DNA of 64,000 bases from contig CANTYJ010000071.1 of the NCBI GenBank assembly GCA_947854175.1, forward strand, positions 2,010-66,009, in the 5' to 3' direction. The notes under the pieces are model-generated. The model saw nothing but the letters and a program-made list of their open reading frames with translations. It was not told where the DNA came from and searched no databases. Origin of the DNA: an uncultured Turicimonas sp. (GTDB taxonomy: Bacteria; Pseudomonadota; Gammaproteobacteria; Burkholderiales; Burkholderiaceae_F). Of the stretch, positions 25,133-36,345 are shown piece after piece. Within the stretch, counting starts at the first letter, position 1; every line of letters begins with the position of its first letter. The position numbers were made by a program, and so were the translations under genes.

Positions 25133-26029
25133 ATGCCCATAGCAAAGTTAAAAAACGTCACGCTTTCTTATCACGAATATGGAGATAAGCATTTACCGAC
25201 CGTCGTTATGATTATGGGGCTTGGCATGAGCTCTGCCTCCTGGCCCCCGGAATTAATCCGCAATCTGGTCAAAAAAGGTCTGCGGGTCATCACGTTTGAT
25301 AACCGGGATGTCGGCAAATCACAGTATTTCCCAACTGACAAAAATTTCCAGTCAACCGCCTTGGCCATTGGAAGAGCTCTTCTCAGACTCCCTGTAAAAG
25401 CTCCTTATAGACTTGAGCACATGGCGATGGACCTGATTGAACTGTTGGACTATTTAAATGTTGATGCGGCTCATTTAGTCGGTGTTTCTATGGGAGGAAT
25501 GATCGCGCAGGTAACCGCTACCATTCATCCCTCAAGGGTCAAGTCACTGACTTCCATCATGTCTGCATCCGGCAATCCGCGCACGGGCACAGGAAAAATT
25601 AAAACCATTTACTCTCTATTTCTTCAGCCGGAGAAGACCGATAGTCAGGAAGGTCTGAAAGAGCATTACAAAAAACTATTTAATGTTCTCAAGAGTCCAA
25701 AATACGACTATCCGAGAGAAGAGTCGGAAAATTTATTTTCCCGTTTGTCCGAGGAACCTTTTAACGAAAAAGCGGTTGAAAGACAACTTCTGGCAATTCT
25801 GGCAAGCGGAGATCGCTCCTCTCAATTGTCGAGATTAACTATTCCGACACTTGTTATTCATGGAGAGGATGATCCTCTGTTGCCGTTGGCTGCCGGAAAA
25901 GAAGTCGCCGACTTAATCTCCAACTCAAAATTAAAGGTCATGCCTCTGATGGGACATGACCTTCCTCCGATTCACTACGAGCAGTTAGCGACCGATATCG
26001 CTAAACACGTTTGGGATAGCGAGAACTAA
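25133..26029 (+). CDS. Alpha/beta-fold hydrolase
   Basis: 298 aa. Nucleophile elbow GVSMGG, late GEDDP and GHD motifs. Confidence 0.8.
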
Positions 26030-26568
26030 TTCGACTCTTCCTTAGCAGCTTTTGCAGCTTCTGCTTTTTGCTTACGGATTTTCGTGCAAATGCGGTTTCG
26101 TTTAAGCAAACTAAGATGATCAACAAAAACAATGCCCTCGAGATGATCCATCTCATGCTGGACACAAACAGCTAAAAGACCGTCGCATTGCATTTCGAAG
26201 GTATTACCGTCTAAATCCTGTGCCTTGATCTTGACTTCTGCAGGGCGTTTTACTTTGTCATAGATTCCCGGAAGAGATAAACAACCCTCTTCCCAGGGCT
26301 TGGTCTCTTTACTGGCTTCAATGATTTCAGGGTTAATCAAAACCTTTAAGTCATTTTTTTCTTCTGTCACGTCGATCACAATCATGCGAATGTGTTTATC
26401 GACCTGGGTTGCAGCCAAACCCACACCCGGTGCCTTGTACATTGTTTCAGCCATATCCGCAGCCAGCTGTTTGAGTTCATCATTGAACTCAGTAACTGCT
26501 TTTGCTTTTGTTTTTAATCTTTCGTCGGGATACTTCAAAATAGGAAGAATTGCCACCTGATACTCCAT
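26026..26568 (-). CDS. def: Peptide deformylase
   Basis: 180 aa. Motifs [23 protein letters not shown]. Confidence 0.92.
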
Positions 26569-26743
26569 TTTTCAATTTGGATTAATTTTAGTCAGCTCCG
26601 TCAAGTTTTAATCCTTTCTAAGTATTTATTGAGAAACTTTCTCACAAAAAACTAGTGAATTATTGAATTTTCCTGATATTGGTCCATATAATGATTTGCA
26701 CTATTCAGATTTTGTACGTTCTAACGATTACAGCAGAGGCAAA

Positions 26744-26809
26744 ATGAGAAAGCAGATAACTTACGCAATATTGCTAAGCGGTTGCTATACCTGCTGTTGT
26801 CTCTGTTAG
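26744..26809 (+). CDS. 21-codon Cys-rich ORF upstream of cysK (candidate regulatory leader peptide)
   Basis: GAGG at 26736-26739, 4 nt before the ATG. Translation MRKQITYAILLSGCYTCCCLC*. Five Cys codons among the last eight sense codons. Same strand as cysK, 108 nt upstream. Confidence 0.4.
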   Translation: MRKQITYAILLSGCYTCCCLC

Positions 26810-26835
26810 TCCTTTCAGTTTCTTTTTTCCTTTGT

Positions 26836-26890
26836 CAGCCGAATGTAATCTTTCTTGCTTATCGGCTGGAAACCTGATTTTCCTTTTCAT
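26836..26890 (+). promoter_or_regulatory. Two adjacent hairpins in the cysK leader (possible attenuator elements)
   Basis: CAGCCGA (26836-42) pairs with TCGGCTG (26862-68), 19-nt loop. GGAAA (26868-72) pairs with TTTCC (26879-83) and is followed by TTTT. The surrounding spacer is pyrimidine-rich and G-poor. Confidence 0.25.
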
Positions 26891-26917
26891 GTATTCCTTT
26901 CTTTGCGGAGAAGTCAT

Positions 26918-27844
26918 ATGACCGTCTATCAATCAATTTCAGAGTTAGTGGGAAATACCCCGCTTTTACAGCTGAATAGCTATTCCAAAAATCATGAATT
27001 AAAAGCCAACGTTCTGGCCAAACTCGAATATTTAAATCCTGCCGGTTCTGTCAAAGATAGAGTTGGCCTGGCAATGCTCAACAAAGCTCAAAAAGAAGGA
27101 CTGCTTAATAAGGATACAGTCATTATTGAGCCAACCAGCGGAAATACAGGGATTGGTCTGGCAGCCATTGCCGCCTCAAGAGGCTTAAAAGTTGTTTTGA
27201 CTATGCCGGAAACTATGAGCGTTGAAAGACGAAATCTTTTAAAAGCTTATGGTGCCGAAATCGTATTAACCGATGGCAAACTCGGCATGAAAGGAGCAAT
27301 TGAAAAAGCGAATGAACTGGCTGCTCAATATCCAAACTCTTTCATTCCCGGCCAATTTGTTAATCCTGCTAACCCGCAAGCCCATTTCGATACTACCGGA
27401 CCGGAAATTTGGGCAGACACTCAGGGCAATATTGATTTCTTTGTCGCCGGAGTAGGCACGGGCGGAACAATTTCAGGAACAGGGAACTTCCTGAAATCAA
27501 AAAATAAGGACATACAAATTGTCGGCGTAGAGCCGGATACTTCAGCCGTAATTAGCGGCGGTAGACCCGGGCCTCATAAACTGCAGGGAATCGGCGCCGG
27601 ATTCATTCCCGAAACCTTATCCGTGAAAGTTCTAGATGAAGTCTTGCCAATCAGCGCTGAAGAAGCCTTTGCTGCAGCAAAAGAGTTAGCGTTAACTGAA
27701 GGAATTCTTGTAGGCATCTCTTCCGGTGCCGCTTTGGCTGCTGCCACAAAAATTGCGGAAAAAGAAGAAAACGCAGGAAAAACCATCGTCGTTCTTCTTC
27801 CTGATACCGGTGACAGATACTTGTCCACAGAATTGTTTCAATAA
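26918..27844 (+). CDS. cysK: Cysteine synthase A (O-acetylserine sulfhydrylase)
   Basis: 308 aa from ATG 26918 (GGAG 7 nt upstream). PLP-lysine motif NPAGSVKDR, plus TSGNTG and GVGTGGT. The track start 26855 is an upstream extension. Confidence 0.9.
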   Translation: MTVYQSISELVGNTPLLQLNSYSKNHELKANVLAKLEYLNPAGSVKDRVGLAMLNKAQKEGLLNKDTVIIEPTSGNTGIGLAAIAASRGLKVVLTMPETMSVERRNLLKAYGAEIVLTDGKLGMKGAIEKANELAAQYPNSFIPGQFVNPANPQAHFDTTGPEIWADTQGNIDFFVAGVGTGGTISGTGNFLKSKNKDIQIVGVEPDTSAVISGGRPGPHKLQGIGAGFIPETLSVKVLDEVLPISAEEAFAAAKELALTEGILVGISSGAALAAATKIAEKEENAGKTIVVLLPDTGDRYLSTELFQ

Positions 27845-31305: not shown

Positions 31306-32247
31306 TTATTGAAAGGCAATTGGGAGCACGAGCTTTTCGATATCTACATCGTGTCTAATCATTCCATTGTCCCGAAGGAACTTTTCATTAACTTTTAGGT
31401 CCTCGATGTCCTTCTGATTCATTTTGTCGAAATAATGGCTTCTGGCAATTAAAGTCTTGGCATCTTCAACAGAAATTTTGTGTTCTTTGGCGCCCATCTC
31501 TGCCGTTTCCTGCGGGTGCTGTTTCATCCATGCCAATGATTCTTTGTAAACCTTATTTATCCGTTTCACAATTTCGGGATGCTCTTTAGCAAATTTCTCT
31601 GTCGTCGTCATAACCAGTGTCGGTTCCACTAAGCCTTCAGCACTGATGATCGTTTTGGCGCCGCCCTTGTTGGCCTTTATCAATGCACTGGAAGCAACCA
31701 AAGCAGCATCTGCTCTGCCGGCCATAACGGCACTCAGAGCCTTTGGAATACCCATGCTGACAAAATTAACGTCACTTTCCTTCATTCCTTCTTTTTCCAA
31801 GGCAGCAACCAGAAGCTGATGTAAGAAAGTTCCTTTCGGACCAACAACCTGCTTACCTTTCAAGTCTTTGACGGTTAAAGTTGTGCCGGGTTTTGAGACG
31901 ATTGCAAAGTTAGATGTCGGATGTGCTGTTCCGGTAACCACTCTCACAGGCAACCCTTCAGAATTAAGCATTAGAAGAGCAGCTGTGTTCATGTTGCCGG
32001 CAATGTCCAGACTTTCTGCAGCCATTGCTTTAGCGGCCTCAGGACTTGTTCCCATGTTGTGCCAATTAATTTTTATGCCGTCTTTTTCAAATTCTTTTTC
32101 CAGAAGCTTGTGATCTTTCATCACAAGCAACTGCAGAACAAACGGTGGTTTGACGTAGGAAATATTCAATTCCTTGAGTGGAGTTGCAGCCAAGGCCAAG
32201 GCAGAAAATGTCAGTAGCCCGGCAGTTAATACAGATTTCAAAAACAT
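31306..32247 (-). CDS. Periplasmic substrate-binding protein, NMT1/THI5-SsuA/TauA-like (NitT/TauT family), orphan
   Basis: 313 aa. Signal peptide MFLKSVLTAGLLTFSALALA. Type-2 PBP pattern. No permease or ATPase gene adjacent. Confidence 0.7.
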   Translation of the reverse strand: MFLKSVLTAGLLTFSALALAATPLKELNISYVKPPFVLQLLVMKDHKLLEKEFEKDGIKINWHNMGTSPEAAKAMAAESLDIAGNMNTAALLMLNSEGLPVRVVTGTAHPTSNFAIVSKPGTTLTVKDLKGKQVVGPKGTFLHQLLVAALEKEGMKESDVNFVSMGIPKALSAVMAGRADAALVASSALIKANKGGAKTIISAEGLVEPTLVMTTTEKFAKEHPEIVKRINKVYKESLAWMKQHPQETAEMGAKEHKISVEDAKTLIARSHYFDKMNQKDIEDLKVNEKFLRDNGMIRHDVDIEKLVLPIAFQ

Positions 32248-35066: not shown

Positions 35067-35322
35067 AACACAAACCCTTCTGAAGTCCCAATAGTTTGTG
35101 CGATTTTTAAAGTAGTAACCGGTTCATTGAGTAAAAATGGGTTATGAGTGCTTCGATTTCTTTTTTTGTAGCCTCAAATAGAAAAATTACTGCATATTTT
35201 TTGATTGACTGCATAATTCTTTCTTACATTTTTCGATCTCTTACATCAATGCTGTAAACTTTTCTCAATGGGGCCGAACAACCCCAAAGATAGGATTCCT
35301 CTCAAATCAAAAGGACAAATAG

Positions 35323-36345
35323 ATGAAAAAACTTGTAATTTCTGCTGCTGTTGCAGCGACATCCTTGATGTTCAGTCAGACCGCTCTGGCCGGTGCCGTC
35401 CTGGATAAGATCAAGAAAGACGATGTCGTTGTGTGTGGTGTTAACACAGCAGCTCCCGGATTCTCAAATGCTGACAGTCAGGGAAAATGGTCCGGTCTGG
35501 ATGTTGATTATTGCCGCGCTTTAGCCGCAGCAGTTCTCGGCGATGCAAATAAAGTCAAATTTGTTCCTTTGAGCTCTCCTCAGAGATTCTCTGCTTTGCA
35601 GGCAGGTGAAATTGACGTTTTGGCCCGTAATACAACCTGGAACCTAACACGTGACGCATCTCTCGGCGCTGTGTTCGTCGGCACTATTTATTACGATGGC
35701 CAGGGCTTTCTTGTTCCTAAGAAACTTGGCGTTAAGTCTGTCAACGAATTAAACGGCGCAACTATCTGCGTTCAATCCGGAACAAGTAGCGAACCAAGCG
35801 TTGCAGATTACTTCAAAGCTCATAACATGAAGTACAAAGCAGTTATTTTTGATACAACGGAAGCTACCCAGGGAGCATTCCTCTCCGGACGTTGCCAGGT
35901 TTATACAACTGACATGAGCGACTTGGCCGGCGCAAGAACAAAAGCCGCCAACCCGGATGACTACGTCATTTTGCCGGAAGTTATTTCTAAAGAACCGCTC
36001 GGACCTTCCGTCAGACGCGGAGATAACGAATGGTTCCAGATCGCCCGTTGGGTTCTCAATGCTTTCATTGAAGCAGAAGAGTATGGAATCACTAAGGAAA
36101 ATGTCGACCAGCTTAAGAAGACCAGCACCAACCCGAACGTTCAACGTCTGGTCGGTAGCGGGGAAGATATGGGCAAACTGCTCGGTCTCGATAAAGACTG
36201 GTCTTACAGAATCATCAAACAAGTCGGCAATTATGGCGAAAGCTTCGAGAAGAACCTCGGACCAAAAACTCCGTTGGCTCTCCCACGCGGTGTAAACAAC
36301 CAGTGGACAAAAGGCGGTATTCTTTATGCTCCTCCGGTCCGCTAA
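35323..36345 (+). CDS. aapJ: General L-amino acid ABC transporter, substrate-binding protein
   Basis: 340 aa. Signal peptide MKKLVISAAVAATSLMFSQTALA. AapJ/BztA-like PBP followed by two AapQ/AapM-like permeases. Confidence 0.8.
   Translation: MKKLVISAAVAATSLMFSQTALAGAVLDKIKKDDVVVCGVNTAAPGFSNADSQGKWSGLDVDYCRALAAAVLGDANKVKFVPLSSPQRFSALQAGEIDVLARNTTWNLTRDASLGAVFVGTIYYDGQGFLVPKKLGVKSVNELNGATICVQSGTSSEPSVADYFKAHNMKYKAVIFDTTEATQGAFLSGRCQVYTTDMSDLAGARTKAANPDDYVILPEVISKEPLGPSVRRGDNEWFQIARWVLNAFIEAEEYGITKENVDQLKKTSTNPNVQRLVGSGEDMGKLLGLDKDWSYRIIKQVGNYGESFEKNLGPKTPLALPRGVNNQWTKGGILYAPPVR

Follow-up and report, generated by a model that had tools for sequence, protein, structure and literature searches.

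A candidate Cys-tRNA-sensing leader peptide upstream of cysK in an uncultured Turicimonas species

We propose that a 21-codon open reading frame (ORF) preceding the O-acetylserine sulfhydrylase gene cysK of an uncultured Turicimonas sp. is a Cys-tRNA-sensing leader peptide that would act as a ribosome-mediated attenuator of cysK, a reading to which we assign a probability of about 0.75. The ORF lies on the plus strand of a 64,000-nucleotide (nt) stretch of DNA, referred to here as the window (contig CANTYJ010000071.1, positions 2,010 to 66,009 of the forward strand). The initial annotation, made from the window alone, had suggested that this ORF couples Cys-tRNA charging to cysK expression, and comparison with four other lineages of the Sutterellaceae lends that suggestion support at the level of sequence. 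From the make-up of the ORF and from these comparisons we infer its translation, the stalling of ribosomes on it, the direction of the regulation and the step at which it takes effect.

The leader ORF and its recurrence in the Sutterellaceae

The coding elements and signals of the locus are the following.

26026-26568, minus strand: def, with a match to the Pep_deformylase domain
26663-26692, plus strand: promoter-like site, TTGAAT (-35) and TATAAT (-10) separated by an 18-nt spacer, 10/12 consensus matches
26736-26739, plus strand: Shine-Dalgarno (SD)-like GAGG of the leader ORF, 4 nt before ATG 26744
26744-26809, plus strand: leader ORF, MRKQITYAILLSGCYTCCCLC, 21 codons followed by TAG (26807-09)
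26783-26806, plus strand: Cys-codon cluster, TGC 26783, TGC 26792, TGT 26795, TGT 26798 and TGT 26804
26918-27844, plus strand: cysK, O-acetylserine sulfhydrylase A (PALP, 1.3e-80), the proposed regulated gene

Cysteine accounts for five of the final eight sense codons of the leader ORF (codons 14, 17, 18, 19 and 21), with TGC-TGT-TGT running consecutively at 26792-26800 and the last Cys codon adjoining the stop. The -10 element of the promoter-like site ends at 26692, 52 nt before the leader ATG, and would place the start of transcription near 26699, some 45 nt before the leader ORF, in a leader of about 220 nt. The ORF thus presents the features of an attenuator leader: an SD and a start codon, on the cysK strand, between a promoter-like site and the cysK ATG at 26918, and clustered codons for the amino acid of the downstream pathway. 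Re-reading the sequence bore out what the initial annotation had reported of the ORF, namely its start at ATG 26744 with GAGG 4 nt upstream, its 21 codons and all five positions of the Cys codons, as well as the unusual length of the gap between def and cysK, put there at about 350 nt; the two genes are divergent and 349 nt apart. The identity of the downstream gene is well defined, its product scoring 444.7 bits on the TIGR01139 cysK equivalog model (cut-off 350.95) and having cysteine synthases without exception as its top matches among solved structures.

Clusters of this kind are rare by chance. Under a first-order Markov model, at least five Cys per eight codons are expected 0.095 times per 64 kilobases (kb) in six frames, and the same rate scaled to the three sense frames of the 350-nt gap gives an expectation of about 3e-4. 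Two clusters with at least five Cys in eight codons occur in the window, the leader ORF and a second one at 35331, which lies off-frame inside a coding gene. When the threshold is lowered to at least four Cys in eight codons the window holds 15 loci, and the leader ORF alone falls outside a long ORF, making it the sole intergenic Cys-codon cluster of the window. Among the matches listed, clusters of at least four Cys in eight codons were present within 400 nt upstream of cysK in 12 of the 19 close loci, compared with 8 of 150 distant ones, some of which are leaders themselves.

Close relatives were collected by a search for homologous proteins followed by retrieval of the contigs encoding the matches, and our statements on the Sutterellaceae cover the cysK relatives with an intergenic leader that could be retrieved. 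Four metagenomic contigs (L081-L084) encode a near-identical CysK and keep the leader ORF, the stop codon of which has changed from TAG to TAA in L084 with its function preserved. The next Sutterellaceae CysK relatives are 72-75% identical to that of the window and carry the names Parasutterella muris or uncultured Parasutterella, and Turicimonas muris; in a third lineage the neighbouring SerS and RarA fall into 90%-identity clusters with proteins named Parasutterella excrementihominis or Parasutterella sp. In four other Sutterellaceae lineages a -10-like box is followed, before cysK, by a short ORF that is rich in Cys towards its C-terminus; these ORFs are listed below with the position of the leader start relative to the cysK ATG.

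L088/89 (P. muris type): MRAQTISFERRAFCSALCCLCSCRMCC, start at -208
L090 (P. muris type): as L088/89 but ending ...CRMCCC, start at -212
L180 (P. muris type): MRARTISFERKAFCSALCCLCSYRICC, start at -210
L092 (P. excrementihominis type): MNARTTKLELEALLSASCCSCCFCMC, start at -350; L093-95 differ by L8F, and the leader across L092-95 reads MNARTTKFELEALLSASCCSCCFCMC
L091 (further Turicimonas muris relative): MNLNYRKLHRNSQRECCCICNFLNSAKAC, start at -163
L085/86 (Turicimonas muris): MNLKDRKVRRSSQRENCCN, start at -163
L087: as L085/86 but ending ...ENCSN, start at -161

Conservation in close relatives had been set beforehand as a test that could have overturned the proposal, and the Cys-rich short ORF was present in all four of these lineages. 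What they keep is the Cys run, its nearness to the stop codon and its place before cysK, and not the peptide: leader lengths range from 19 to 29 amino acids, with length and sequence varying freely, and nucleotide alignment of the leaders across genera is unreliable (61% mean column identity, with many gaps). Such retention of regulatory codons and position while the remaining peptide drifts, to which L087 and L177 are exceptions, is the signature of a regulatory leader rather than of a functional peptide. Synteny has changed as well: cysK is preceded by def in the window and by a tRNA gene in Turicimonas, and in the Parasutterella lineages its upstream neighbour is a 189-amino-acid ORF (P. 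muris type) or serS (P. excrementihominis type). A similar -10 context recurs 50-75 nt upstream of the relatives' leader ORFs (CATATAATGGATT in L085 and L087, CCTATAATGGATT in L091 and CCTATAAT in L088). The cysK gene of L096 lies second in an operon.

The second Cys cluster of the window belongs to an ORF at 35268-35408 (plus strand), MGPNNPKDRIPLKSKGQIDEKTCNFCCCCSDILDVQ..., which has four consecutive Cys codons and overlaps the start of the gene at 35323-36345. That gene encodes the binding protein of an amino-acid ABC transporter, the permeases of which weakly resemble cystine and glutamine permeases. We considered this cluster as a leader and rejected it: it lies off-frame over signal-peptide codons, and no SD was found before the ATG of its ORF. 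It is probably a chance by-product of GCT-rich Ala codons, a reading that we favour over that of a Cys-sensing overlapping ORF acting on a possible cystine importer.

The Turicimonas-type contigs L085, L086, L087 and L091 all break about 496 nt upstream of cysK and start with GGTGTGTCTACCAATTTCACCACGTCGGC, which, by eye, we take to be the reverse complement of the 5' end of a tRNA gene resembling tRNA-Leu. The shared break point at this gene suggests that a repeated tRNA gene fragments the assemblies there.

Short Cys-containing ORFs upstream of distant cysK genes

Two scans of contig collections, one of genomes and one of metagenomes, were carried out with the CysK sequence of the window, and the matches listed are Clostridia-type loci (L001-L080 and L097-L176) with a CysK 59-68% identical to it, no close relative being among them; these loci served as controls for the close relatives, and the counts that follow are all among the matches listed. 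An SD-preceded upstream ORF (uORF) of at most 40 codons containing Cys-Cys was found in 15 of 150 sense upstream regions; the corresponding counts are 3 for the antisense direction and 4 and 2 for regions downstream of cysK, and Markov shuffles gave 0.95 ± 0.98. Such uORFs are therefore about 15-fold more frequent upstream of distant cysK genes than in shuffles, and Cys-Cys is the commonest doubled residue among all 20 amino acids. The word GATGTTG, mostly as CGATGTTG, occurs in 28 of 153 upstream regions, at a density of 0.95 per kb versus 0.069 per kb elsewhere in the same loci (about 14-fold), and 25 of the 153 loci have uORFs that end in Arg(CGA)-Cys(UGU)-stop(UGA) or contain Arg-Cys-Cys. 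The former are exemplified by MFKRC, MTLKRC, MKSLHFDTRC and MKQILSGFRC, each followed directly by the stop, and the latter by uORFs terminating in ...YRCCRCQ, ...FRCCPGA and ...HRCCPCLCLS.

The Clostridia-type uORFs are built on the word CGAUGUUG and are short, SD-led and located within 200 nt upstream of cysK (for example in L004, L009, L010, L028, L106, L137, L145, L115, L126, L129 and L142, with a clear terminator following the uORF in L142). No description of this uORF family was found in Rfam or in the literature searched. A palindrome, AACCTAC-N-GTAGGTT, lies between the promoter -10 and the uORF in L115, L109, L142, L043, L014, L126, L042 and L178/179, and looks, by its sequence, like an operator for a repressor of the Rrf2/CymR type; an Rrf2-family gene is encoded two genes downstream of cysK in L179. 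The palindrome near the promoter and the Rrf2-family gene together suggest dual control by a repressor and a Cys leader. The ORF MRKQPCGVFCC... of L042 was examined as a homologue of the window peptide and discarded, being upstream of the promoter and within the terminator of the preceding gene.

The affinities of CysK itself are of interest in this context. The window CysK scores lower against enterobacterial CysK (Salmonella, E. coli, Haemophilus) than against plant and mycobacterial cysteine synthases, and its nearest relatives outside the Sutterellaceae, among the matches listed, are the CysK of L177 (73%), spirochaete-type proteins (70-72%) and those of Clostridia-type loci (59-68%). This distribution hints that the Sutterellaceae lineage acquired its cysK horizontally and, with affinities that lie outside the Sutterellaceae and the enterobacterial type, makes it possible that gene and leader were transferred together. 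About 3.5 kb downstream of cysK the window also encodes, at 31306-32247 on the minus strand, an SsuA-family substrate-binding protein of the aliphatic sulfonate/taurine type, which places another sulfur-acquisition function in the vicinity.

A broader proposal may be formulated from these observations, which we advance tentatively and would, on balance, lean against. Gut Clostridia and Sutterellaceae would share a large, hitherto undescribed family of cysK leaders, of which that of the window represents one branch. The core of the family would be UGU-UGN at the end of the uORF, with Arg(CGA)-Cys(UGU)-stop(UGA) as its minimal form, expanded to Cys-Cys runs in the Sutterellaceae. A single Cys codon next to the stop would be enough, the family may have travelled horizontally with the Clostridia-type cysK, and its members would read the residence time of the ribosome instead of making a terminator/antiterminator choice.

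RNA structure, proposed mechanism and rival explanations

The folding and base composition of the leader and of the spacer between the ORF and cysK (26810-26917, 108 nt) point to four further features.

26730-26810, plus strand: leader hairpin, with its 5' arm (26730-26742) in the leader SD region and its 3' arm (26797-26810) over the last Cys codons and the stop
26810-26889, plus strand: pyrimidine-rich, G-poor spacer, a candidate termination tract and/or Rho loading (rut) site
26816-26888, plus strand: compound stem-loop with the U-rich tail AUUUUCCUUUUC (26877-88), a weak terminator-like or pause candidate
26883-26913, plus strand: cysK ribosome-binding region with its SD, GGAG 26907-10, in a predicted fold

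The leader hairpin, which includes an inner stem-loop around 26760-26778, has a predicted energy of -24.2 kcal/mol (z = -2.08, with 5 of 200 shuffles folding equally well), and a hairpin spanning the whole ORF, the structure that recurred best in the folds, is, on this modelling, probable but not proven. Comparable whole-ORF hairpins were obtained for L088 (P. muris type, z -2.96) and L092 (P. excrementihominis type, z -3.14), whereas those of the Turicimonas leaders do not stand out from shuffles. The U/C-rich tract at 26811-26835 follows directly 3' of the leader hairpin and the stop, the hairpin being succeeded by CCUUUCAGUUUCUUUUUUCC. Over its first 80 nt the spacer consists of 71% pyrimidine and 14% G, has a C/G ratio of 1.7 and ranks in the top 0.1% of the window's 80-nt stretches by pyrimidine content. 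The spacer is C-rich and G-poor by the stop, as rut sites are, a criterion of low specificity; the C/G ratios of the relatives range from 1.1 to 3.1.

In the compound stem-loop, an outer stem joins CAGUUUC (26816-22) to GGAAAC.CUG (26868-76) and an inner one CAGCCGA (26836-42) to TCGGCTG (26862-68), and GGAAA (26868-72) can pair with TTTCC (26879-83), followed by TTTT at 26884-87. Its energy is -22.5 kcal/mol (z -1.8); it is not conserved in relatives and was not flagged by the consensus terminator scan. In the minimum-free-energy fold, GAGAAG (26908-13) at the cysK SD pairs with CUUUUC (26883-88), an anti-SD-like tract. The structural elements listed in the initial annotation were all recovered: the start of the ORF, GAGAAAGCAG (26747-56), pairs with the Cys region CTGTTGTCTC (26794-803) at 9 of 10 positions, the composition ascribed to the spacer is the one measured here, and the 7-base-pair hairpin, the GGAAA/TTTCC hairpin and the TTTT lie where they had been placed. 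The same holds for its remark that a textbook terminator/antiterminator pair could not be found, with which the terminator scan and the folding agree. No Rfam family was matched in the leader, in the whole window or in the loci of the relatives.

In the Parasutterella lineages, small second hairpins form over the last Cys codons and the stop, with sequences that differ between lineages.

L088: GUGCUG...CAGCAC
L180: the L088 hairpin weakened to UUGCUG...CAGCAC
L090: UGUUGUUAAC...GUUAAUAACA
L092: GUAUGUGUUG...UAACUCAUAC

Each is followed by a U-rich block: the P. muris-type contigs L088 and L180 have CACUCGUCUUUUCAUUU, from which L090 differs only slightly, and the resemblance of the L092 block, UCUCUUUAUUUUCC, is limited to its U-richness. 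In these models the second hairpin and its U-rich block look like a weak terminator, the folding of which would be prevented by a ribosome on the Cys codons. The terminator scan also flags an inner hairpin within the Parasutterella leader ORFs (L088 2318-2347 and L092 2184-2197), AACGCAGGGCATTCTGCAGTGCCTTGTGTT followed by GTCTGTGTTC, that is, by the U/G-rich Cys codons themselves; as modelled, it could make RNA polymerase pause and so keep transcription in step with the leader ribosome.

These elements can be assembled into the following mechanism. Transcription would begin at the promoter-like site, near 26699, and a ribosome would load at GAGG/ATG (26736-26746) and read the 21 codons. With plentiful Cys-tRNA(Cys) it would pass the five Cys codons, terminate at TAG 26807 and depart; the leader hairpin would then close (26730-42 with 26797-26810), and the bare U/C-rich spacer would end or silence the transcript before cysK, either by termination at the U-rich tract or by Rho loading, with the cysK SD remaining paired to CUUUUC. 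When Cys-tRNA(Cys) is scarce, the ribosome would be parked on 26792-26806, holding the hairpin open and covering the start of the spacer, and cysK would be transcribed and translated. Because the Cys codons abut the stop, such a switch would read how long the ribosome resides there and not which downstream segment it has reached. Given a leader peptide, termination by hairpin and U-rich tract with direct occlusion by the ribosome is an output step that we would put somewhat short of even odds; a Rho-dependent step is conceivable, although we would wager against it, and a purely translational one appears unlikely. As a main mechanism, unmasking of the cysK ribosome-binding site was set aside, constrained folding having given no consistent change across lineages, and so was a pairing of the mycobacterial type between the Cys tract and the cysK SD, which is no better than with the SDs of other genes.

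Several results weigh against a Cys-sensing leader or against parts of its mechanism. The complementarity between the 5' arm and the Cys window, equalled by 0 of 1500 random genomic 21-mers, was downgraded after a composition-matched control, in which it is marginal (p 0.05, 0.08 and 0.11). The full 231-nt leader is not unusually structured (z -0.96), and the consensus terminator scan of the plus strand from the ORF to cysK gave no match, there being no canonical terminator/antiterminator pair. Masking the Cys codons in silico moves the unpaired probability of the cysK SD from 0.18 to 0.27, with inconsistent outcomes among lineages; the 5' arm then pairs anew with the poly-pyrimidine tract, a complementarity that reaches only the 6% level. 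Pairing of the Cys tract with the cysK SD amounts to -9.9 kcal/mol, and 17% of the SDs of other genes pair equally. On the comparative side, the leader of Turicimonas muris holds two Cys codons and that of L087 one, while the short leaders of L177 (CysK 73% identical) and of the spirochaete pair L178/179 have no Cys-rich ORF.

Three other explanations of the ORF have to be weighed against these results. It might encode a functional small peptide, either a tiny lipoprotein or a thiol- or metal-binding Cys-rich peptide, whose adjacency to cysK would be incidental. The SD and ATG would serve such a peptide equally well, MRK, a hydrophobic stretch and LLSGC in succession look like a short signal peptide of a lipoprotein (the initial annotation had raised LLSGC as a lipobox, with CYTCCCLC as the mature peptide), and the window and Parasutterella leaders share some residues (MR.Q.I at the start and A.LS in mid-peptide), a similarity that may instead stem from pairing with the Cys codons. 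The lipoprotein idea did not survive comparison, however: the lipobox is confined to the window, at its place the P. muris type has AFCSALCC and the P. excrementihominis type ALLSASCC, there is none in Turicimonas, and a would-be signal peptide of 13 residues is very short next to those typical of lipoproteins. The drift of length and sequence around a Cys run that keeps its place by the stop and before cysK speaks against any functional peptide, and a Clostridia counterpart as short as MFKRC cannot be secreted, so that we regard this explanation as very improbable. That the ORF is a functionless product of chance in a T-rich intergenic region is, in our estimation, less credible still. Short ORFs are abundant, U/G-rich sequence favours TGT and TGC codons, and about 5% of unrelated cysK upstream regions, among the matches listed, reach four Cys in eight codons; yet the expectation for the gap is about 3e-4, the cluster is the only intergenic one of the window, its recurrence in four other lineages has outlasted alignable DNA and synteny, and distant cysK genes show the excess of Cys-Cys uORFs over shuffles.

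The third explanation holds that the conserved entity is an RNA structure and not a translated ORF, a UG-rich hairpin arm (bound by protein, or acting as a pause or terminator) that happens to read as Cys, with cysK controlled by a transcription factor, such as a CysB-like protein or a repressor of the Rrf2/CymR type, or by the RNA alone. The negative z-scores of whole-leader hairpins in three lineages are compatible with it, as are the nature of the conserved unit in Clostridia-type loci, at the nucleotide level the word CGAUGUUG, in which the Arg codon is invariably CGA, the operator-like palindrome by the -10 box in many of those loci and the LysR-family gene that adjoins cysK in L090. In every lineage, however, the UG-rich tract shares its frame with an upstream start, mostly SD-led, and with a stop 0-4 codons on (in L091 the stop comes 10 codons after the tract, and the ORF ends in another Cys codon), and a pure RNA element has no reason to keep frame, start and stop. 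The sequences and partners of the hairpins change between lineages while reading frame and Cys content persist, the significance of the hairpins is weak once composition is controlled, and no Rfam family was matched. A transcription factor may act in addition, which is compatible with a leader peptide. We consider this explanation improbable and prefer that of a leader peptide sensing Cys-tRNA.

Significance and relation to known leaders

Cysteine is reactive and tightly controlled in cells. Regulation of cysK is attributed to CysB and N-acetylserine in Proteobacteria and to CymR and T-box control in Firmicutes, and a ribosome-based Cys sensor before cysK would, if true, add a direct read-out of tRNA-Cys charging in both groups. 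The hosts are common gut bacteria, and two of them can be cultivated, Turicimonas muris, which belongs to the Oligo-MM12 mouse consortium, and Parasutterella excrementihominis; with these two models the prediction is directly testable. The family spans 1 to 9 Cys codons and differing hairpins, and would thus provide a natural series for the minimal number of hungry codons and the RNA context that attenuation needs, drawn from unannotated ORFs of 5-29 codons that genome annotation otherwise overlooks or mis-calls.

Like trpL, hisL, leuL, thrL, ilvL and pheL, the window element is a promoter-proximal, SD-led ORF with codons for the end product, on the strand of the gene it precedes and with a hairpin involving those codons. 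In contrast to these classical proteobacterial attenuators, no terminator and antiterminator that exclude each other, with a G+C-rich stem and a U-run, could be found in it, and its regulatory codons, immediately before the stop, occupy the 3' arm of a hairpin that has the leader ribosome-binding site as its 5' arm. There is also a likeness to tnaC of the E. coli tna operon, in that a ribosome stalled at the end of the leader could deny Rho a C-rich, G-poor spacer starting at the stop. TnaC senses free tryptophan through its nascent peptide and induces a catabolic operon, whereas the signal in the window would be uncharged tRNA-Cys at hungry codons and the gene controlled a biosynthetic one.

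The analogy with tnaC was drawn earlier for actinobacterial cys leaders (PMC1262725). For the cys operons of Actinobacteria, stop-proximal Cys leader peptides were predicted in 2005, with no terminators and with poly-pyrimidine spacers, and Rho was suggested to act there much as in tna (Seliverstov et al. 2005, PMC1262725). In M. smegmatis, experiments have established polycysteine leaderless small ORFs as cysteine-responsive attenuators (Canestrari et al. 2020, bioRxiv 10.1101/834739; Mol Microbiol 114:93). The mechanism of the one locus dissected, Ms5788A, is translational, and its sensing was attributed to a ribosome that pauses on the Cys codons and so prevents the Cys tract from taking part in an RNA pairing (10.1101/834739). 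The window element resembles these mycobacterial and actinobacterial leaders in being a short ORF with a stop-proximal Cys run, 5' of a cysteine-biosynthesis gene, with a poly-pyrimidine spacer and no obvious intrinsic terminator, and its TGC-TGT-TGT agrees with the mycobacterial definition of at least two consecutive Cys codons. It differs in that, by its SD and predicted promoter (-10 ending 52 nt before the ATG), it is not leaderless, in its betaproteobacterial host, in the lack of sequence similarity and in preceding a monocistronic cysK rather than an operon. Unlike in Ms5788A, the strongest predicted partner of its Cys tract is the leader's own SD region and not a downstream ribosome-binding site.

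In Rhodobacterales, uORFC-8-2 upstream of cysS is a uORF with tandem Cys codons inside a stem, for which a role in sensing the charging of Cys-tRNA, through stalled ribosomes, has been proposed (Brewer et al. 2021, PMC8632094). The two have in common a proteobacterial uORF with tandem Cys codons in a predicted stem, but uORFC-8-2 controls cysS and is characterised by two Cys at positions 14-15, two stems with covariation and a clear U-run terminator (PMC8632094), whereas the window has cysK downstream, five C-terminal Cys codons and no clean U-run terminator. In the literature searched we found no account of a Cys leader before a betaproteobacterial or clostridial cysK, in agreement with the statement of the initial annotation that none was known for proteobacterial cysK; Cys leaders as a kind are nonetheless known, from Actinobacteria and from cysS of Rhodobacterales. 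The window element shares the logic of these known Cys leaders, and not their defining specifics.

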